Positions 2,532-34,952 of a DNA stretch of 35,657 bases are shown here, piece by piece. This DNA is from a virus (Duplodnaviria > Heunggongvirae > Uroviricota > Caudoviricetes), in the IMG/VR virus record IMGVR_UViG_2740892433_000005, positions 1 to 35,657 of that record, one strand, 5' to 3'. Under the pieces are notes generated by a model, which saw only the letters and a list, made by a program, of their open reading frames with translations, searched no databases and was not told where the DNA came from. The position numbers were made by a program, and so were the translations under genes. Each line of letters starts with the position of its first letter. The stretch's first letter is position 1.

Positions 2532-2585
2532 GGGGGCAGTATTGCCCCCGTGCGGGAACGCTGATATTAAAGGCGTTTAAAAAGC

Positions 2586-4551: not shown

Positions 4552-5435
4552 CACACACTCCTCGTCAGTATTCTGGCGGCCATTGCACTTAATCCCGGAG
4601 ACATGCGGTTGAATGCTGTTCCGACGGCGTTAAGCTGCCCGGAAACGGTATCCAGAGCACCTGCAATATTTCTTTTGTCCACACCACTCAGCGCAGACTG
4701 TGCCTGCTGTACATACGTGGCTGCTTCGCTGGCTGTTCTGGCCAGACTGATGGCATCGGGCATGGATTCAGAGAGTGCGTTAAACGCCGGAACACTTTTC
4801 CCCAGAGCCCCGGAGATATTACCCAGTCCGCTCATCAGCCCCGGCACACGGGTCAGTGCGACAACGGGGTTATCCTTCATTTTCTGTGTCACTCGAACGG
4901 CGCTGATAGTGGTCTGGAGTACAGACTGCGCCTGTTTCGCATAGTTGACGCCGTTGCGGATGAACTGCGCCACCCCGGAAGGTGAAGGAATGGCACCGGA
5001 GACCGCCCCGACACCCGGGAGCTTCGTGCGTATTGCCGGTGGTTGCAGAGGATTTTTCGGGTCACCGGTGTATTCCCGGAGAGACACGGTGGCACTGACA
5101 GCCAGCACGTTGCCGGTACTGTCAGTCTGCTCGCTGGTTGCAGTCACATCGGTAATCACGAACCAGCCGCGATAGTCACCGTTGCCGAAGACCAGCGCCA
5201 GTGCCTGATGGGCTTTCATGGCTGTTCGCAGTCTCGCCAGCTCCACATCGGGTACACAATAATGCTGATGGAAAACCAGAGTTATCTGGATTTCGTCCAG
5301 CCTGTCGCCGACGAACTGCAGGCCAGGCTTACCCCCGATGCGGGCATGCTCCGCATAATCGACGCCGAACGTGGCCTCGAAGCCGTCCCAGTAGGTAATC
5401 AGCTCAAACTCAATATCACCCAGTACGGCAAACAT
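4551..5435 (-). CDS. tail protein with P2 gpU-like / Mu N (DNA circulation) N-terminal region
   Basis: 294-aa ORF immediately downstream of the tape measure gene; N-terminal segment (..RIGGKPGLQFVGDRLDEIQITLVF..) resembles gpU-type tail proteins as I remember them. Confidence 0.45.
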   Translation of the reverse strand: MFAVLGDIEFELITYWDGFEATFGVDYAEHARIGGKPGLQFVGDRLDEIQITLVFHQHYCVPDVELARLRTAMKAHQALALVFGNGDYRGWFVITDVTATSEQTDSTGNVLAVSATVSLREYTGDPKNPLQPPAIRTKLPGVGAVSGAIPSPSGVAQFIRNGVNYAKQAQSVLQTTISAVRVTQKMKDNPVVALTRVPGLMSGLGNISGALGKSVPAFNALSESMPDAISLARTASEAATYVQQAQSALSGVDKRNIAGALDTVSGQLNAVGTAFNRMSPGLSAMAARILTRSV

Positions 5436-10294: not shown

Positions 10295-10354
10295 GATTGT
10301 GCTCCTGTGTAAGTTCAGGGCAGTATGTCGGGAGAAGCGCGTGACGGATATTAA

Positions 10355-10385
10355 AGGAGATTAAGAAGAAGGGGCCGGAGCCCCT
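10355..10385 (-). terminator. putative partial intrinsic terminator inside the tail operon
   Basis: On the minus strand AGGGGC-UCCG-GCCCCU hairpin (plus 10370-10385) followed by the U-rich run UCUUCUUAAUCUCCU, directly after the stop of the 93-aa ORF and before the chaperone RBS. Confidence 0.35.
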
Positions 10386-10675: not shown

Positions 10676-11197
10676 TCAGCCCCCGATATTGATACGGTAG
10701 TCAGTCAGTTGATCAACACCGCCGACCCGGAAGATGTTGGCCAGATAGTCCAGTTGCAGCAGCTCTTCACCATCCAGTACCTGTCTGATATACGTGCAGG
10801 TGAAGCTACTGGAGAACTCGGCGTTCTCGTGCTGTTTGAACGTCCCCAGCGGGTTCTTCTTGAACATAATCGTCAGGAAGGTGACCAGCGGGATTTCGTC
10901 AATCAGCCCCTGCGAGCTGTAGCGCTGGACGCTGGAACGACACTGCAGTGCCAGCGACCTGTACGGGTTCGCGGCAGACAGCATCGCATCGCGGTAAAAG
11001 CTGTTCCATTTGATTTCGCCTTCCAGCTTGTCAAAACCAGCCGGGAGTTCCACCTTACCCACCATCCCCAGCGCCTTGTGTTCCTGCATAATCATGGAGA
11101 CATCGGGGAGTTTGACTTCCTCAGCCCGTCCCAGCAGGTTAGTACCATCCAGATAGATGTTGGCATTCGTGATGCGGTTTATCTCAATCTTTGACAT
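10676..11197 (-). CDS. tail tube protein (Mu gpM-like)
   Basis: 173-aa ORF; ATG at 11197 shares a nucleotide with the sheath gene stop; size and position right after the sheath gene. Confidence 0.6.
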   Translation of the reverse strand: MSKIEINRITNANIYLDGTNLLGRAEEVKLPDVSMIMQEHKALGMVGKVELPAGFDKLEGEIKWNSFYRDAMLSAANPYRSLALQCRSSVQRYSSQGLIDEIPLVTFLTIMFKKNPLGTFKQHENAEFSSSFTCTYIRQVLDGEELLQLDYLANIFRVGGVDQLTDYRINIGG

Positions 11198-21884: not shown

Positions 21885-22531
21885 TTCTGTAATCCTTCCC
21901 GTTCATCCAGTAGCGCGTTTATCTGGTTCCGCCAGCGACGACATTGCCCTGCGTTGTCGATGATGTTGGCGAGAACGTCACGCTGGGAGACGCCTGAGTC
22001 GCGTAGCCAGGCGTCAGCGGTTTCAGGTTGCCCGGTCGCTGTGCCAGAGCGGGTGCCAGTGGCGGCAACTGAGTCTGAATGACCGCTGTCGACGGATGCG
22101 TTGTCATATCCGAGTGCGGCGTTGTACTGGCGCACGAAACCGCGAGTAAACACGCACTCAATGGGATGGCTCTTACCTTTTTCATCAATCCAGCGCTGTG
22201 TGACATCGTTAATTTGCCCCTGTAGTTGTTTATTCCGGCTCTCCAGTTGAGCAATCTGCTCAAGGTAACTGGCTTCAGCCTGCTGCCCGGCGGCCACCTG
22301 CTCCTGATACCGTTTTGCCCAGGCCCGCAACGCAGCGTTCTCAAGCGTTGCCTGCTCCGTTTTGTATTTGTCGAATGCTGACTGCAACTGACTGAGCGCG
22401 GTATTACCGTCACGCTTTGCAGAGTCATGACCACTGCTGTATCCCATGGCATACAGGCCGACCAGAAAGGCATTGATAAGAATGGCCAGCAGAATGCCGC
22501 GCCACGGCAGCTTTTTAACCAGATGCCACAC
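21881..22531 (-). CDS. i-spanin (Rz-like inner-membrane spanin)
   Basis: N-terminal TM segment (WRGILLAILINAFLVGLYAMGY) then periplasmic coiled coil; directly downstream of the endolysin; contains an embedded +1-frame lipoprotein ORF. Start uncertain: GTG at 22531 taken, upstream ATGs would overlap the endolysin gene by ~100 nt. Confidence 0.55.
   Translation of the reverse strand: MWHLVKKLPWRGILLAILINAFLVGLYAMGYSSGHDSAKRDGNTALSQLQSAFDKYKTEQATLENAALRAWAKRYQEQVAAGQQAEASYLEQIAQLESRNKQLQGQINDVTQRWIDEKGKSHPIECVFTRGFVRQYNAALGYDNASVDSGHSDSVAATGTRSGTATGQPETADAWLRDSGVSQRDVLANIIDNAGQCRRWRNQINALLDEREGLQK
21919..22185 (-). CDS. o-spanin (Rz1-like outer-membrane lipoprotein), embedded in +1 frame of i-spanin
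   Basis: ATG at 22185; predicted product MKKVRAIPLSACLLAVSC.. has a lipoprotein-type signal with Cys, followed by a proline-rich segment; entirely inside the i-spanin gene. Confidence 0.45.
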   Translation of the reverse strand: MKKVRAIPLSACLLAVSCASTTPHSDMTTHPSTAVIQTQLPPLAPALAQRPGNLKPLTPGYATQASPSVTFSPTSSTTQGNVVAGGTR

Positions 22532-23255
22532 AACTGCTGCCTCCCCATGTGAGATATCGCGGTGCCAGCTCGCGCAGGATGCGTTGTGGATAATGGCGGT
22601 TCTCCCGCCAGCTGGCAGCATTGCGTCCGGCATTCACCGTGGCGACATGTCCGAACCAGCGCTGACTGTCCAGCCCCAGATATGCGGCGAGCCGCTGGTC
22701 ACGGCGCACCCAGCCCGGGCCACCGTTATAGCCCGACAGTGTCATGGCCATACGCTCGCAGTCGCTGGCGGCACTGATGCGCTGCCACAGCCAGCGGTCA
22801 TAACTGACCAGCGCCCGGATAGCCCATGCCGGATTAAACGGCTCTCGACTGCTCAGCGCCGGCATCAACTGGCTTATCCAGTCGGCAGTGGCAGGCATAA
22901 ACTGCGCCAGTCCCTGAGCCCCCACCGGCGAGATCGCATCAGGTCGCCAGCCGCTTTCCTGATGCAGTTGCGCAGCGAAATCAGCCACCGGCGCAGACAG
23001 TCCCCATTCAAGCCGGGCATTACGGATCACATCATCGCGATACTGCAGGGCAGCCCGCGGGGGCTGTGCTGCGGATGCCTGACTGAAAAAGCCACCACAC
23101 CAGAGCAACATTGCGACAAAGAATACCCATGCCATATGAACCAGAAAGGTCCCGGCGCGGACTGACAGGCGTTCGGTTCTGATGAAGACCCGAAAGGCTT
23201 CGAAAGCCAGTTTCAGGGACATGCATACAATCCAGGTGATCTGCGGCCAGTTCAT
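22515..23255 (-). CDS. endolysin, lytic transglycosylase (SLT domain) with N-terminal signal-anchor or signal peptide
   Basis: Motif ..LHQESGWRPDAISPVGAQGLAQFMP.. (catalytic Glu-Ser of the SLT family); hydrophobic segment MAWVFFVAMLLWCGGFF; ATG at 23255 is 2 nt after the holin stop, alternative ATG at 23135. Confidence 0.7.
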   Translation of the reverse strand: MNWPQITWIVCMSLKLAFEAFRVFIRTERLSVRAGTFLVHMAWVFFVAMLLWCGGFFSQASAAQPPRAALQYRDDVIRNARLEWGLSAPVADFAAQLHQESGWRPDAISPVGAQGLAQFMPATADWISQLMPALSSREPFNPAWAIRALVSYDRWLWQRISAASDCERMAMTLSGYNGGPGWVRRDQRLAAYLGLDSQRWFGHVATVNAGRNAASWRENRHYPQRILRELAPRYLTWGGSSCVASG

Positions 23256-23257
23256 GA

Positions 23258-23608
23258 TTAAAGCCCCATCGCAACAGCCAGACAGACAGCTGCAACAATC
23301 AGTGCACGACGAAGCAGGGCGGCAGCAAACACCAGATGAAGCCCGGTCTGTACGGGCCAGCGCCCCTCAGCCATGAGGCGCTCGTCATGCTTCAGGTACT
23401 GCCCCGGGCGGGCCTTCGGGAAGAGCGAGCGGTCCAGCCAGTAGCCGAGAACGGCGGCGAGGGAGATGAGAGAGAGCTTGTACACCACCACCGGCAGCTG
23501 CTGGGGCGAGACCAGCGCGATGATGAGGAGCAGCAGTACGGCGGCAACAAGCCAGCCACGCAGGCGGGTTTTTTGTACGTCTGCGATAAGGGAGGTGAGT
23601 TTTTTCAT
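23258..23608 (-). CDS. holin candidate (three predicted TM segments)
   Basis: 116-aa ORF with three hydrophobic stretches, first gene of the leftward late block, directly upstream of the endolysin. Confidence 0.5.
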   Translation of the reverse strand: MKKLTSLIADVQKTRLRGWLVAAVLLLLIIALVSPQQLPVVVYKLSLISLAAVLGYWLDRSLFPKARPGQYLKHDERLMAEGRWPVQTGLHLVFAAALLRRALIVAAVCLAVAMGL

Positions 23609-23613
23609 AAAGA

Positions 23614-23636
23614 TGTCTCCTTGTGTAGTGGAGACA
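23614..23636 (-). promoter_or_regulatory. stem-loop overlapping the holin ribosome-binding site
   Basis: tgtctcc (23614-23620) and ggagaca (23630-23636) are perfect inverse complements with a 9-nt loop; on the minus strand the GGAG 8 nt before the holin ATG lies in the 3' arm. Confidence 0.35.
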
Positions 23637-23740
23637 GCATCACAAATACGGGGCGCGAAGGATTTTAAAGCGCGTTAAGAGAGCCGGGGATACGGGATGC
23701 GCAGAATAAACGATGAATTATTCACAGAGGAGAATACGAT

Positions 23741-24484
23741 ATGACGCACACACTGAATCCGGTCATCACTGTCACTGTGTCCGGTCCTGTGGGCAGCGGT
23801 AAAAGTTACGTACTGGCGCGGATAGAAGAGATGGTGAAACAGGAACTCGGAAACAGCGTCATTGTCGATGCTGCTGACGTGGAGAATGAGCGCCGTATGA
23901 GTGGCGATGATCTGACGACCTGGCAGAAGCCACGGGGTGGCACAGTGATCAGGCTGGAGGAATACACGGGACAGGGCCTGTTGTCATACGGCGAGGAGCG
24001 TATCTGTCGGACGAATGAGCTGCTGGATGTTATATGCCCCGCGGGCCGGCAACCCTGGATACTGCCCGATGCACTGCATGCCACCATTGCGGCACTGATG
24101 ACAGTTTACGATCAGGAACTGCTCATGAAGGAGTTACGTAAACTCACCGGTCAGCCAACAGAATGTTTTTCGGCCCCGAAGTACGGGAAGCAGGAACACA
24201 TCCCGGTGAACACAATCCCCGTTAACCAGCCTCCCCGGTTCTTCGACGAATACATTCTGACACCGGAAAATAAAGCTGAGCATGAAGAGATCAAAGAGGC
24301 GTTGTTCCGGGAAATCAGGAAGATTGCTGAAATGCAACTGGGGGGCGGGCTGGACAGAGTGATGGCGAGAGGAGAATGGGAGTCGCTGTTTGAAAGAGTT
24401 TCCCCGGAATTACTGCCCCTCGCACTGGCTATCGGGATTATGCAGACAGCAGATAAACCTCACTTACGTTCATCAAACACGTAG
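23741..24484 (+). CDS. P-loop (Walker A GPVGSGKS) protein of unknown function
   Basis: 247-aa ORF, GAGGAG 8 nt upstream of ATG; Walker A-type motif at residues 15-22; no further family assignment possible by eye. Confidence 0.45.
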   Translation: MTHTLNPVITVTVSGPVGSGKSYVLARIEEMVKQELGNSVIVDAADVENERRMSGDDLTTWQKPRGGTVIRLEEYTGQGLLSYGEERICRTNELLDVICPAGRQPWILPDALHATIAALMTVYDQELLMKELRKLTGQPTECFSAPKYGKQEHIPVNTIPVNQPPRFFDEYILTPENKAEHEEIKEALFREIRKIAEMQLGGGLDRVMARGEWESLFERVSPELLPLALAIGIMQTADKPHLRSSNT

Positions 24485-24537
24485 CGCAGAATATTTTGCC
24501 GGTGAGTACATAAAAATCATCATTTAAGGAGTGCATC

Positions 24538-24762
24538 ATGAATCCCCGATTAACGTTAACAGAACATCAGCGCCGTGCCGAAGCAGTGAACAATGTTCTG
24601 GAAGATATTATCCGGTTACATCGCGGAGAACTGAGTGTCTGTCGTGCTACTGTTCATTTTCAGGAAATACAAAAGCAGTTCGATACTTCTGTTTTTGCAG
24701 AAGGGATCACTTATGCCCTGGACCAGATAAAGGCAGAAAATCGCTCCCCGGATAATCCCTAA
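24538..24762 (+). CDS. small hypothetical protein
   Basis: 74-aa ORF with strong TAAGGAG RBS 7 nt upstream of ATG, 53 nt downstream of the P-loop gene. Confidence 0.4.
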   Translation: MNPRLTLTEHQRRAEAVNNVLEDIIRLHRGELSVCRATVHFQEIQKQFDTSVFAEGITYALDQIKAENRSPDNP

Positions 24763-24811
24763 ACCACATTAACAGAAATCCCGCCATCCCTGCCGCATCA
24801 TGAAAGAACGA

Positions 24812-24839
24812 CCAGCCCGGAACCCGAAATCCGGGCTGG
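24812..24839 (+). other. 10-bp-stem hairpin in the leader upstream of the methyltransferase gene
   Basis: ccagcccgga / tccgggctgg perfect inverted repeat with 8-nt loop; not followed by a U-tract on the plus strand. Confidence 0.4.
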
Positions 24840-24944
24840 CCATCGTCCCACAGGAATGCACTGTGAGCCGACCGAGGTTCAGTCAGTCTCGCGAGACCAG
24901 ACTAGCCTGCCATATTTTTAGTAATTGTAAAAGGCTTACAGATT

Positions 24945-25709
24945 ATGAAAATGCAGACATTACCCATCGTTCCATGGATTGGTGGCAAACGCCGCCTTGC
25001 AAAACACATTCTGCCGCTGTTTCCGGCGCATGAATGTTATGTGGAGCCGTTTTGTGGGGCAGCAGCGCTCTATTTTCTTAAGACACCCGGCAAGATCGAA
25101 GTCATTAATGATATCAACGGTGAACTGGTGAATCTGTACCGGGTGGTAAAGCATCACCTGGAAGAATTTGTCCGCCAGTTCAAATGGGCGCTGGTCAGCC
25201 GTCAGATCTACAAATGGCTGCAGATCACCCCGGAAGAAACACTGACGGATATCCAGCGTGCGGCACGGTTCTACTACCTTCAGAAGCAGGCGTTTGGCGG
25301 CAAGGTGGCAGAGCACAGCTTCGGTACCTCCACCACATCCCCGCCACGCTTCAACCTGCTGCGTATTGAAGAAGAACTGTCAACAGCACACCTGCGGCTT
25401 TCCAGAACAGTCATAGAACACATGGACTGGCAACAGTGCATTGAGCGTTATGATCGTCCGCACACACTGTTCTACTGCGACCCACCGTACCTGGGTACGG
25501 AAGGCTATGGTGTGGATTTTCCTGAAGGGAACTACTCGCGGCTGGCAGAGCTGGCCCGGTGCATCAGAGGAAAAATGATAATTTCGGTGAACGATATCCC
25601 ACAGATGCGCGAGGTGTTCACTGGACTGAACATACAGACAGTGAACATCAACTACAGTCTGGCGGGGAAACCCACGCCGCGCCGTGAACTGGTAATCTGC
25701 AACTTCTGA
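24945..25709 (+). CDS. DNA N6-adenine methyltransferase, Dam (D12) class
   Basis: Motif I ..VEPFCGAAALYF.. and motif IV ..YCDPPYLGTEGY.. in the order typical of Dam-family enzymes; N-terminal ..PWIGGKRRL.. resembles the Dam N-terminus; 254 aa. Confidence 0.8.
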   Translation: MKMQTLPIVPWIGGKRRLAKHILPLFPAHECYVEPFCGAAALYFLKTPGKIEVINDINGELVNLYRVVKHHLEEFVRQFKWALVSRQIYKWLQITPEETLTDIQRAARFYYLQKQAFGGKVAEHSFGTSTTSPPRFNLLRIEEELSTAHLRLSRTVIEHMDWQQCIERYDRPHTLFYCDPPYLGTEGYGVDFPEGNYSRLAELARCIRGKMIISVNDIPQMREVFTGLNIQTVNINYSLAGKPTPRRELVICNF

Positions 25710-25715
25710 GACAAA

Positions 25716-25740
25716 ACCGGAAAGCACAATGCTTTCCGGT
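25716..25740 (-). terminator. intrinsic terminator-like hairpin between methyltransferase and repressor genes
   Basis: accggaaagca / tgctttccggt 11-bp perfect stem with a short loop; on the minus strand followed by UUUGUCUC; lies ~85 nt downstream of the repressor stop and 7 nt after the methyltransferase stop. Confidence 0.5.
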
Positions 25741-25825
25741 AAACCAGACGATTTCTGCCATGCTACTGACGGCGCTTTCTGAAAGCGTCCAGATCAACCA
25801 CCTGTCCTTTGTGTCCGGGTCAGTA

Positions 25826-26179
25826 TCAGCCTGCGATTTTTCCTGGTTTTGGCTGAGTATAGAATCGCCCAATCTCAAGAAATGAGCGTTGTTGGTCTGG
25901 TGTCATGTTGTCAAAAGTATCTATTAATTTTTGTTTTTCGGGGGATATCCGGTTCTGAATTTCCACCTCACCATCTGTGCTCATACCCGTAAGAATGAAG
26001 GCAACATCTACTCCTGCGGCTCCTAAAACTACCAGTTTATCTAGCGGGATATTTCCTTTTTCCATCCAGTTATAAATCGTCGCCCGCGAGATACCAGTGG
26101 ACTTAGATACCGCCAAAGGACCAACACGTTTTAATTCTGAAATGAGACGCGCATGTATTTTTTCTAAATTAATGGACAT
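25826..26179 (-). CDS. prophage repressor (XRE-family HTH)
   Basis: ORF track 25826..26401; chosen start is the in-frame ATG at 26179 (MSINLEKIH..) because the longer form would read through the operator region and the Ner-like gene start; HTH ..VSKSTGISRATIYNWMEKG.. and ..VDVAFILTG.. helix typical of XRE/CI-type repressors; divergent from the early operon; visibly AT-rich. Confidence 0.65.
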   Translation of the reverse strand: MSINLEKIHARLISELKRVGPLAVSKSTGISRATIYNWMEKGNIPLDKLVVLGAAGVDVAFILTGMSTDGEVEIQNRISPEKQKLIDTFDNMTPDQQRSFLEIGRFYTQPKPGKIAG

Positions 26180-26184
26180 AAAAC

Positions 26185-26213
26185 TTGCTCTGTCTAAATT
26201 TTTAGACAATAAT
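26185..26213 (+). promoter_or_regulatory. candidate early promoter with operator palindrome in the spacer
   Basis: TTGCTC (26185-26190), 17-nt spacer, AATAAT (26208-26213); the spacer contains the perfect 16-bp palindrome GTCTAAATTTTTAGAC (26192-26207); a related half-site tctaaatt occurs at 26164-26171. Confidence 0.45.
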
Positions 26214-26260
26214 CTATCACACATAACGCAAACATCATTGCACCAAACAAGGAGACAACA

Positions 26261-26449
26261 ATGACTGCAGACCAGGTCAAAGCTCATTTCCGTCGCAATG
26301 GGATCACTTTTACCCAGTGGGCAAAACAGAACAACTACACCAGAGCGGAGGTTTACCGCGTACTGAATGGCCAGGTAAAAGCGAACTACGGCAAAGCCCA
26401 TGAAATCGCTGTAAAGCTGGGATTAAAAACCATCACTGACGCTGCTTAA
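26261..26449 (+). CDS. small DNA-binding regulator, Ner/Cro-like by position
   Basis: 62-aa ORF, AAGGAG 6 nt upstream of ATG; first rightward gene divergent from the repressor; no confident family match by eye. Confidence 0.45.
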   Translation: MTADQVKAHFRRNGITFTQWAKQNNYTRAEVYRVLNGQVKANYGKAHEIAVKLGLKTITDAA

Positions 26450-26498
26450 AAAGATACAGCATACGAAAAAGATTATCACATATTGAAAAGGTGTGCAG

Positions 26499-26804
26499 AT
26501 GAGTAAGGCGAATGTTTCAAGCTCCGGCACCCGTATCCTTCGGGTACTTAAGGCACTGCGCGGTCATGCCCTGAACGGTATTTCCAACGGTGAACTGGCA
26601 GCAGCACTGCACGAGTCACCGGCAAACATCAACCGGGCACTCAACACCCTCATCGAAGAAGGGCTGGCTCTGAAACTGGAAAACGGACGTTTTGCGCCGG
26701 GCATCCAGTTGCTGCAGATCGCCATGGCTCATAACAATGAAATGGCCCATGCCCAGGCCCGTATTAATGAAATCAACCAGCGTGTTATCGCTGGCAGCCG
26801 TTAA
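26499..26804 (+). CDS. putative winged-helix DNA-binding regulator
   Basis: ATG at 26499 preceded by AAAAGGTG; product ..GTRILRVLKALRGHALNGISNGELAAALHESPANINRALNTLIEEGLA.. looks like a winged-helix HTH. Confidence 0.4.
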   Translation: MSKANVSSSGTRILRVLKALRGHALNGISNGELAAALHESPANINRALNTLIEEGLALKLENGRFAPGIQLLQIAMAHNNEMAHAQARINEINQRVIAGSR

Positions 26805-29892: not shown

Positions 29893-31059
29893 ATGCTGGT
29901 ACTGAAGCAGCAACTGAAAGAGGCCCGTATCCCACAGGCGGTGGTGGCGAGAGCTGTCGATGTTTCTGAGGCCACGCTGGCCCAGATTGTGAATCATAAC
30001 GCGTGGCCCCGCACCAGCCCCGGAGAAGTGCGCCGGCGTCTTGCGTCCTGGCTGGAAAGTCAGGGGATTGATACAACGAAGAGTTTTGATGCTGTACAGG
30101 GCGCAGCCACGCCCCGTACAGCGGGTACCACAGATAAAACGAGCCTCAGTGAGGAAGAGAATATGTTACTCAAAAAACAGGTGTTATTTCCAGCAACCAA
30201 AAAAGCGTTTGGTCTTTTCCGTGACCCGTTCGCCGATGAAGCCATGCAGGGTTCTGATGATGTGTTCACCACCCCGGACATTCGCTACGTGCGTGAGGCG
30301 TTGTACCAGACAGCCCGTCATGGTGGGTTTATGGCCGTCATCGGTGAGTCCGGTGCGGGTAAATCCACGCTGCGCCGCGACCTGACTGAACGTATCAACC
30401 GCGAGAATGCGCCGGTAATTGTTATCGAGCCATACATCATCGCTATGGAAGACAACGATGTGAAAGGGAAAACCCTGAAGGCAGCAGCGATTGCCGAAGC
30501 CATTATCAGTACCATCGCACCACTGGAAAGCATCAGACGCAGTCAGGACGCCCGTTTTCGCCAGTTGCATCGCGTCCTGAAAGACAGCAGCCAGGCGGGG
30601 TTCAGCCACGTTCTGGTGATTGAGGAGGCCCACAGTCTGCCCATTCCGACACTGAAACACCTCAAACGCTTTTTTGAGCTGGAGTCCGGTTTCAAAAAAC
30701 TGCTGTCCATCGTGCTGATTGGCCAGCCGGAACTGGCGACAAAACTGTCTGAACGCAATATGGAAGTCCGTGAAGTCGTTCAGCGCTGTGAGGTGGTCGA
30801 ACTTCTGCCTCTGGACAATAACCTTGAAGAATTTCTGACGTTCAAACTGCAACGGGCCGGTAAACAGCTGACGGACATTATGGACGCCGGTGCAGTGGAT
30901 GCCATACGTGCCCGCCTGAGCAATCCGGGAAGTCACCGTAAAAATATGGTCAGCCTGCTGTATCCGCTGGCCGTCAGTAACCTGGTAATAGCCGCCATGA
31001 ATCTGGCCGCTGAAATCGGGGTTCCACAGGTCAACGCTGACGTTGTCAAAGGGGTTTAA
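29893..31059 (+). CDS. transposition ATPase (MuB-like, AAA+)
   Basis: ATG at 29893 with GAGGAGG upstream; N-terminal HTH-like segment then Walker A ..GESGAGKST.. and Walker B-like ..HVLVIEEAH..; immediately downstream of the transposase. Confidence 0.7.
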   Translation: MLVLKQQLKEARIPQAVVARAVDVSEATLAQIVNHNAWPRTSPGEVRRRLASWLESQGIDTTKSFDAVQGAATPRTAGTTDKTSLSEEENMLLKKQVLFPATKKAFGLFRDPFADEAMQGSDDVFTTPDIRYVREALYQTARHGGFMAVIGESGAGKSTLRRDLTERINRENAPVIVIEPYIIAMEDNDVKGKTLKAAAIAEAIISTIAPLESIRRSQDARFRQLHRVLKDSSQAGFSHVLVIEEAHSLPIPTLKHLKRFFELESGFKKLLSIVLIGQPELATKLSERNMEVREVVQRCEVVELLPLDNNLEEFLTFKLQRAGKQLTDIMDAGAVDAIRARLSNPGSHRKNMVSLLYPLAVSNLVIAAMNLAAEIGVPQVNADVVKGV

Positions 31060-34910: not shown

Positions 34911-34952
34911 TTCCTGCTTGTTAAAGTCCTTTCAAAAATCTCCTTATTGTAT

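Follow-up and report, generated by a model that had tools for sequence, protein, structure and literature searches.

Temperate phages gather accessory genes at hotspots, among them those of P2 and P4 and the anti-CRISPR loci of the Pseudomonas Mu-like phages. In phage Mu, the activators C and Mor recognize a 16-bp dyad at -43.5, and the four late promoters, which have a -10 element and no -35 element, include Pmom, the promoter for DNA modification (PMC2582627, PMC4390567). Closer to the present case is M.EcoMIV, a methyltransferase of the prophage Phi2 in the E. coli ST131 strain EC958, which is transcribed significantly less than the host dam gene in the growing lysogen and to which no methylation motif could be assigned in that strain (PMC4659465). 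Here we consider a close homologue of this enzyme (98-99% identical to ST131-type copies at the amino acid level) and the two genes upstream of it, which encode proteins of 247 and 74 amino acids (aa), at positions 23741-25709 of a 35,657-nt viral sequence (IMG/VR record IMGVR_UViG_2740892433_000005; we refer to this whole stretch as the window). We give somewhat better than even chances to the view that a BcepMu-like transposable prophage carries in this block an accessory operon of its late phase, and not a self-contained three-gene system. The predicted architecture, comprising a late promoter, an insertion slot, a structured leader, an orphan methylase and a hairpin at 25716-25740, finds statistical support across many genomes.

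Mor, GemA, Gam and Mu gp27 domains are all found among the products of the window, along with a DDE transposase and a transposition protein of the AAA+ class; it is therefore a BcepMu-like transposable prophage, of the type of Phi2 in E. coli ST131. Its closest phage match is Escherichia phage PhiKM, of the genus Bcepmuvirus, which is 94.9% identical across the block. The block is present, whole or in part, in 635 of 5,426 complete E. coli genomes (~12%), nearly always on the chromosome, and 481 complete genomes carry at least 80% of it. In EC958, Phi2 is the same prophage type and lies at a site upstream of ycaL; the region holds the published Phi2 tail-fibre inversion sites (PMC4134206). In the literature searched, we found no functional study of the block beyond the M.EcoMIV work (PMC4659465).

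The first gene of the block is separated by 132 bp from the divergent holin gene (Holin_2-3; 23258-23608, minus strand), and this intergenic region contains a near-palindromic 14-bp dyad, TTAAAGCGCGTTAA (23665-23678), that can be read on both strands. A predicted -10 element, CAGAAT (23702-23707, plus strand), follows the dyad by 23 nt and precedes the start codon of the 247-aa protein by 34 nt. On the minus strand, a predicted -10 element for the holin (late lysis) promoter, GATGCT (23636-23641), lies 23 nt from the same dyad, which we predict to be a Mor/C-type activator site shared by the two divergent promoters. The same layout recurs in two other intergenic gaps, where the dyad is followed after 23 nt by AATACT (2567-2580, minus strand, in the baseplate/tail region) or CATACT (10351-10364, minus strand, in the tail region), and both are predicted late promoters. 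The predicted trans-acting factor for these dyads is the only Mor/C-family activator in the phage (34512-34910, plus strand; PF08765, 1.1e-43).

With one mismatch or fewer, the dyad TTAAA-N4-TTTAA occurs five times in the window against an expectation of 0.39, a number reached in none of 200 shuffles, and the full architecture of dyad, 23-nt spacing and hexamer is found five times against 0.03 expected. The dyad is centred ~42 nt upstream of where transcription is inferred to start. The hexamer CA[G/T][A/G]AT is kept in all of seven aligned loci and the dyad is conserved in divergent loci, but the spacer is not. The bidirectional architecture is conserved in loci L037, L038, L040 and L002 and in EC958, and Klebsiella phage KP12 has it at all equivalent positions, with the tail/baseplate copies at 4902-4915 and 10718-10731 of its locus L134. 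For BcepMu, we found no counterpart to any of the three genes, and its first 20 kb contains no such dyad.

Two further sites in the window were considered as promoters and rejected. The site at 31046 is missing a suitable hexamer at the fixed spacing. The other, TTAAAGTCCTTTCA (34921-34934), comes directly behind the Mor gene, close to where the prophage ends on the right. A strong hairpin that resembles a terminator and has a T-run comes next, and the poor hexamer at the fixed spacing, CACGGT, is one in name only and is inside that hairpin.

No sigma-70 consensus promoter was found in the 132-bp region between the holin gene and the P-loop gene. The original prediction had placed the block in a typical moron position between lysis genes and repressor, and this region is indeed variable; expression of the block as a moron in the lysogen, on the other hand, is unlikely for a promoter region with late-type architecture and no sigma-70 consensus. 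Rather, the block appears to be a Mor-dependent late (or middle) unit that would be fired together with the lysis operon. This reading fits the weak lysogenic transcription reported for M.EcoMIV.

Two other features of the promoter region deserve mention. The ribosome-binding site of the holin gene (GGAG) lies inside a hairpin, GTCTCC-N9-GGAGAC (23615-23635), that is invariant in seven of seven aligned loci; its position at the 5' end of the predicted lysis transcript suggests translational or stability control of the holin. In some Salmonella/Citrobacter-type loci, a second copy of the dyad is found inside the slot described below (L037, 7551-7564; L038, 6861-6874), in L037 with a 113-aa gene of the minus strand on one side and the methylase leader on the other. 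The cargo region may thus contain further promoters that depend on the activator.

The organization of the block was addressed by two surveys, one anchored on the start of the methylase and the other on the P-loop gene. The first yielded 68 loci with both a holin and a methylase, 58 of which contain neither the P-loop gene nor the 74-aa gene; the full trio is present in eight, and two are partial. In roughly half of the 58 loci without this cargo, only ~250-280 bp separate holin and methylase, and where the gap is larger it is occupied by unrelated genes on either strand. In most relatives the promoter leads straight into the leader of the methylase gene. Because the cargo is missing from 58 of 68 loci and is replaced elsewhere by unrelated genes, we regard the methylase as the resident gene and the stretch upstream of it as an insertion slot, of which the 247-aa and 74-aa genes (~23708-24798) are one cargo variant.

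The second survey covered 23 enterobacterial BcepMu-like loci, with the N-terminal domains searched in two subgroups, as no stretch is conserved across all 21. In every one of the 23 loci, down to 47% identity in this domain, the P-loop gene is the first gene divergent from the holin. The methylase follows downstream in 14 and is absent from seven, two of the loci being truncated, and P-loop genes without it occur both in E. coli (L002, L020-L025) and in L038. Within ~6 kb of the domain in unrelated phage contigs, no relative of Dam was detected (tblastn, E <= 1e-3). Thus, the proposal that the three genes form one module is contradicted from both sides, since most methylase loci contain neither of the other two genes and the P-loop gene also occurs without the methylase.

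The modular character of the slot extends to the proteins themselves. The C-terminal modules of P-loop fusions are also found as separate plus-strand slot proteins (E 1e-27 to 1e-51), and a 102-aa slot protein is related to residues 188-233 of the 247-aa protein of the window (E 5e-11). Among the slot cargo that we sampled there is no known defence or anti-defence family; the only matches are to DUF2441 and, weakly, to a 2TM effector. Cargo on the minus strand includes a 186-aa predicted membrane protein (L059, L087), which is the source of the weak PADLOC match to '2TM effector' (E 0.005), and the DUF2441 proteins of 188-193 aa (L073, L074, L102). These minus-strand genes are candidates for functions expressed in the lysogen.

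The methylase gene itself (24945-25709, plus strand; 254 aa) was identified in the original prediction as Dam-class from its EPFCGAAA and DPPY motifs, and this identification is borne out over the full length of the protein by matches above cut-off to PF02086 (5e-29; 102.2 bits against 22) and to TIGR00571 'dam' (116.5 bits against 114.85), and by a match to the PADLOC type II methyltransferase model (5.6e-112). The S-adenosylmethionine motif I (EPFCGAAA, residues 34-41) and the catalytic motif IV (DPPY, residues 179-182) both align with those of DpnM and EcoDam. By phmmer, the protein is a distant relative of E. coli Dam (E 5.7e-14) and of DpnM (1.1e-16), with scores of 55-64 bits, and its target-recognition segment is unlike that of EcoDam. 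No nuclease-like open reading frame (ORF) or domain, and so no restriction endonuclease, is present among its neighbours (the 74-aa gene, the leader and the repressor gene). Judged by these matches and motifs, the enzyme is an orphan D12-class (Dam-family) N6-adenine DNA methyltransferase.

The tetranucleotide GATC is under-represented in the prophage (94 sites observed against 171.5 expected at 1-34940 of the window, a ratio of 0.55), second only to CTAG among 4-bp palindromes, and ten GATC sites lie within 23600-25850. As an indicator of the target of the methylase this frequency is uninformative.

The methylase gene is preceded by a structured 5' leader of ~145 nt (24799-24944, plus strand). 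Over 47 distinct leader sequences, the consensus pairing is realized in 96.3% of cells, compared with 29-55% in slid controls, and the covariation score is 0.222, compared with at most 0.047. The leader of the window has a minimum free energy of -55 kcal/mol (z = -4.58). Its first hairpin, P1 (CCAGCCCGGA / TCCGGGCTGG; 24812-24839, plus strand), is a perfect inverted repeat in the window, and compensatory double changes are seen at seven of its eight pairs. The second element is a 9-bp long-range helix, in which the 5' arm CUGUGAGCC (24861-24869, plus strand) would pair with the Shine-Dalgarno region of the methylase; the 3' arm GGCUUACAG (24933-24941, plus strand) overlaps the Shine-Dalgarno sequence and the spacer before the ATG at 24945. 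The pairs of this helix are invariant or switch only between wobble-compatible pairs. The leader is conserved in every methylase-bearing locus, including those in which it directly follows the promoter, and Rfam 15 has no match to it at E <= 1 within 23500-26500. We infer that the leader acts as a translational gate for the methylase by masking its Shine-Dalgarno sequence. Two other interpretations were discarded: P1 has no U-tract and is not an intrinsic terminator, and the ORF at 24800-25033 that overlaps the leader is not read as coding, its start codon not being conserved and its substitutions following the base pairing.

At the far end of the block, a perfect 11-bp hairpin (25716-25740) lies between the convergent methylase and repressor genes. 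Since its T-run is confined to the minus strand, we read it as the terminator of the repressor gene; it is also a possible barrier to the plus-strand transcript.

All three ORFs, which lie at the coordinates and in the orientation originally given, with lysis genes of the opposite strand to the left and a repressor to the right, are real genes under purifying selection. This conclusion follows from their strong Shine-Dalgarno sequences (GAGGAG for the 247-aa gene and AAGGAG for the 74-aa gene), from near-identical homologues in hundreds of genomes, and from low pairwise ratios of nonsynonymous to synonymous substitution (dN/dS), which stand at ~0.2 in the 247-aa gene and 0.06-0.23 in the methylase gene, and at ~0.33 in the 74-aa gene, where substitutions are few.

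The 247-aa protein (23741-24484, plus strand; of the unannotated family phrog_3787) consists of an N-terminal mini P-loop domain followed by helical middle and C-terminal modules. Its Walker A motif, GPVGSGKS, is confirmed at residues 15-22 (23783-23806, plus strand), and within it neither G20 nor K21 varies among 21 divergent sequences. The hhhh(x)E pattern visible in the domain alignment points to a candidate Walker B-like strand, VIRLEE (residues 69-74; 23945-23962, plus strand), whose E73 is invariant in nine divergent homologues. Word-based searches with the 247-aa and 74-aa proteins retrieve E. coli relatives only. Among the relatives of the 247-aa protein, forms of 182 aa are missing residues 52-124 and others, of 141 aa, stop after residue 135; the protein is therefore modular. 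An exhaustive search of representatives returned 53 clusters in which, beyond close relatives and fragments, nearly all matches are confined to residues 1-76 (23741-23968, plus strand), the sole part of the protein with homology beyond E. coli. This compact domain opens with a beta-strand that leads through GxxGxGK[S/T] into a helix; another strand comes next, and after it a conserved loop (E-R/K, G, D, W, P) and a hydrophobic strand that ends in the invariant glutamate.

This domain travels widely. It stands alone as proteins of 68-90 aa in assorted unrelated phage contigs, some of them apparently of lytic or jumbo phages, where it lies within arrays of small genes; contigs of 116-258 kb have it joined to C-termini that are unrelated; and in Salmonella and Citrobacter prophages it is fused to shuffled helical modules. 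No neighbours shared among the domain-bearing contigs of other phages were found. Co-occurrence of the gene pair outside Mu-like prophages, which had been suggested as a check, is accordingly not observed: the 74-aa gene is restricted to E. coli, and the P-loop domain elsewhere has no shared neighbour.

The absence of a characterized family for the 247-aa and 74-aa proteins, as first reported from the letters of the sequence, holds up in searches of Pfam, NCBIfam, PADLOC and PHROGs and, for the 247-aa protein, of the PDB. No Pfam P-loop family reaches threshold for the 247-aa protein (best, 16.8 bits against 27), and in ten divergent members of the domain family Pfam recognizes no C-terminal domain. 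Matches to the curated families of Pfam and NCBIfam and to the PDB are below cut-off and cover residues ~2-60 only, with the complete alpha/beta core unrecognized. A profile search of the PDB with the domain returns Walker A-plus-helix segments of ABC-type and engineered phosphate-loop proteins (E 3.7e-5 to 6.7e-4). The best PADLOC match of the 247-aa protein has E 0.011 and covers the Walker A region only, where weak SngB and HerA matches (E >= 0.01) are found. The mini P-loop domain may reasonably be supposed to bind nucleotides.

The genomic surroundings of the domain in two contigs hint weakly at a connection with nucleotide metabolism. Both L006 (2408-2983) and L007 (4471-5166) have a dCTP-deaminase-like gene with a stand-alone mini P-loop gene 1-2.5 kb downstream of it, and the mini P-loop gene of L007 is also near an HD-domain gene; two contigs are too few to count. 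In a third, the 74-kb IMG/VR contig L013 (6853-8715 and 8898-10925), a mini P-loop fusion gene adjoins a eukaryotic-type Ser/Thr kinase (Pkinase 4e-76, Myosin_TH1, Pkinase_C), and an ORF beside the fusion gene has sub-threshold EGF-like matches. This contig may be giant virus or eukaryotic DNA rather than bacteriophage.

The 74-aa protein (24538-24762, plus strand) contains a single cysteine and matches nothing in Pfam, NCBIfam or PADLOC, and among PHROGs only the unannotated family phrog_4490. Its gene is confined to E. coli BcepMu-like prophages and always lies beside the C-terminal module of the 247-aa protein. As the genes are adjacent, within ~1 kb, this co-occurrence is indistinguishable from simple linkage. 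We considered whether the 74-aa protein might be a Com-like activator of the methylase and rejected this, as the leader is conserved in many loci without the 74-aa gene. The spacing between the two genes differs among E. coli copies. In most of them, those of EC958 and PhiKM included, an additional ~320 bp is inserted at the place that corresponds to 24484-24538 of the window. The insertion has a minus-strand 134-aa ORF (3858-4262 of L004, for the ST131-type loci) without a Pfam or PADLOC match. The window, 98.9% identical to strain SCU-105, represents the rarer variant that lacks it.

To the left, the holin gene is followed by that for an SLT endolysin (22515-23255, minus strand). On the right flank lies the gene for a helix-turn-helix repressor (25826-26401, minus strand), a mechanically called ORF of 191 aa that overlaps a ner-like gene at 26261-26449. 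The annotated repressors of relatives are 118-128 aa long, and the true start is probably an internal Met at ~26179, which would leave an 81-bp divergent early control region.

The picture that we favour for the block, that of a late-phase accessory operon, would work as follows. During lytic growth, Mor would bind the shared dyad and activate the lysis/late operon leftward and the block rightward, as C does at Plys and Pmom in Mu. The long-range helix of the leader, by masking the Shine-Dalgarno region, would gate translation of the methylase, which may then modify replicating or progeny phage DNA late in infection, either for anti-restriction in the next host or for self-marking; this role is drawn from what other phage methylases do. 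The 247-aa protein would bind phosphate or a nucleotide, with the mini P-loop as an all-purpose attachment to helical modules that can be exchanged, perhaps one that switches or oligomerises with NTP, and the 74-aa protein may be a helical partner restricted to this lineage or the product of a separate cargo gene. Because the 247-aa protein is predicted to be expressed late, is mosaic and phage-restricted, and has an invariant Walker A lysine, our low-confidence guess is that it has a role in counter-defence or host manipulation during lytic growth; this is the weakest part of the account.

Several observations weigh against this picture. The dyad could bind some other factor. The methylase scores only 67.2 against a cut-off of 441 with the E. 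coli Dam equivalog model NF008152, and an enzyme specific for GATC would be redundant in a dam+ host. The helix that would mask the Shine-Dalgarno sequence shows no compensatory double changes, and the invariance of its 3' arm, which the search pattern itself required, does not count as independent evidence; the long-range helix is therefore less well supported than P1. For the 247-aa protein, PADLOC, Pfam and the PDB give nothing beyond the Walker A motif and no tie to defence or counter-defence, and three homologues have GKN in place of GK[ST]. To our knowledge, a unit of ~75 residues is far below the size of any characterized P-loop NTPase core, and nucleotide binding itself is therefore unproven. 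The structural check proposed with the original prediction was of little help, as AlphaFold2 models of the full-length 247-aa protein and of its N-terminal domain are both poor (predicted local distance difference test scores, pLDDT, of 39.9 and 56.0), and a Foldseek search of the PDB returned nothing at E <= 1e-3.

How do other readings of the block compare? A hypervariable region beside the repressor is a typical site of prophage defence genes, and the block might thus be cargo expressed in the lysogen, with the P-loop and 74-aa proteins acting as a toxin-antitoxin or abortive-infection pair, next to which the methylase would be an orphan that merely travels along. Defence systems often include P-loop proteins, PADLOC gives the weak SngB and HerA matches in the Walker A region, and the 74-aa gene occurs only with the C-terminal module of the 247-aa protein. 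That association may be mere linkage of genes within ~1 kb, however, and PADLOC has no significant match for the 247-aa protein and nothing for the 74-aa protein. The late-type architecture in place of a sigma-70 consensus promoter, the poor transcription of the orthologous methylase in the EC958 lysogen, and the occurrence of the domain on its own in lytic-type or jumbo-looking phage contigs all speak against expression in the lysogen, and we consider this reading distinctly unlikely. The narrower suggestion made at the outset, of a kinase-like toxin and its partner, has no support, given the same lack of a significant PADLOC match and because the P-loop signature is limited to ~75 residues. 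A single machine for DNA modification, in which the P-loop and small proteins provide the methylase with nucleotide-dependent targeting, activation or substrate, would account for three genes on the same strand and the same predicted transcript, and could draw on the two phage contigs with the domain 1-2.5 kb from dCTP-deaminase-like or HD-domain genes. We find it very unlikely, since 58 of 68 loci have the methylase with the same leader and neither of its two companions, the P-loop gene is found without the methylase (L002, L020-L025, L038) and without a Dam relative within ~6 kb elsewhere, and the contigs that bear the domain share no neighbours.

The remaining two alternatives concern the upstream genes. 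That the 247-aa protein is the phage's own lysis or packaging accessory, for instance one co-regulated with the holin, is suggested by its invariable position as the first gene divergent from the holin, with a shared predicted activator site, in all 23 P-loop-anchored loci, and by one siphovirus-like contig in which the stand-alone domain lies just upstream of the terminase and portal genes. The gene is absent, however, from BcepMu and from most relatives with the same lysis and packaging genes, and the variable C-termini speak against a conserved structural partner; we give this little probability. The least probable account, in our estimation, is that the 247-aa and 74-aa ORFs are functionless remnants decaying at a recombination hotspot. 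Truncated and frameshifted variants are many (141-, 158- and 182-aa forms, and fragments), and the mosaic modules indicate frequent recombination, but the dN/dS values of ~0.2 and 0.33, the full-length block in 481 complete genomes, the strong ribosome-binding sites, and a Walker A lysine that is invariant in distant phages all speak against decay.

The late-phase accessory operon can also be extended into a bolder proposal. The mini P-loop, at roughly 70 residues, might be the smallest natural autonomous nucleotide-binding P-loop domain and the mark of a family of phage proteins, new and expressed late, for counter-defence or host takeover. In these, a conserved N-terminal switch or oligomeriser that depends on NTP would be joined to exchangeable target-recognition modules, delivered from a Mor-driven slot upstream of a methylase that is gated by a type of leader RNA absent from Rfam. 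We offer this as speculation that is unlikely to be right.

If correct, the reading as a late operon would have several consequences. Late transcription together with translational gating would explain the apparent silence of M.EcoMIV in lysogen methylomes. It would supply testable predictions of late promoters and activator sites for enterobacterial BcepMu-like phages, add a candidate cis-regulatory RNA with good covariation support, and define a slot in which new accessory genes of the lytic phase might be found. The block is at present annotated only as 'hypothetical' and 'DNA adenine methylase', including in the pandemic ST131 clone. Although the trio does not qualify as the previously undescribed module that the original prediction saw in it, neither the mini P-loop family nor the methylase leader has a match in the curated protein or RNA family libraries that we searched. 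For protein evolution, it is of interest that natural proteins of 68-90 aa with an intact Walker A motif resemble engineered minimal phosphate-loop proteins.

Among described systems, com-mom of Mu is the nearest parallel to the arrangement as a whole. In both cases a transposable phage has an activator of the Mor/C family and four activator-dependent promoters, predicted ones in the present phage, with a dyad near -43, a -10 element and no -35 element, one of which drives a DNA-modification gene, and RNA structure is predicted to cover the translation start of that gene, much as the translation-inhibition stem does in mom. The differences are equally clear. The modification enzyme is a Dam-family methyltransferase here and Mom in Mu; there is no Com-like zinc-finger protein, as the 74-aa protein has one cysteine and is absent from most of the loci that keep the leader; and we see no evidence here for the Dam/OxyR control of com-mom. 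In contrast to Pmom, the plus-strand promoter is divergent from the lysis promoter and shares its dyad.

The components of the block have parallels of their own. The methylase resembles the orphan Dam enzymes of phages (T4 Dam, P1 Dam, Stx-phage Dam and M.EcoMIV) in its D12 domain, its EPFCGAAA and DPPY motifs and its lack of a cognate endonuclease; it is set apart from known Dam enzymes by its distance from E. coli Dam and DpnM, by falling short of the equivalog cut-off, and by a conserved structured leader without an Rfam match. The mini P-loop domain has in common with P-loop NTPases and with engineered phosphate-loop proteins (PDB 6c2u and the designed ATPase 9jix) a strand that runs through GxxGxGK[ST] into a helix, then another strand and, after that, a hydrophobic one with Glu at its end. 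Unlike P-loop NTPases, its conserved unit spans ~75 residues, it has natural stand-alone forms of 68-90 aa, and it belongs to no Pfam family at threshold. Finally, the slot is like the hotspots of temperate phages in its fixed position between conserved genes and in the differing small genes that it holds in otherwise similar prophages. In contrast to those hotspots, it would be transcribed as part of the predicted late unit, near the 5' end of the RNA, with the promoter on one side and the structured leader of the resident methylase on the other.

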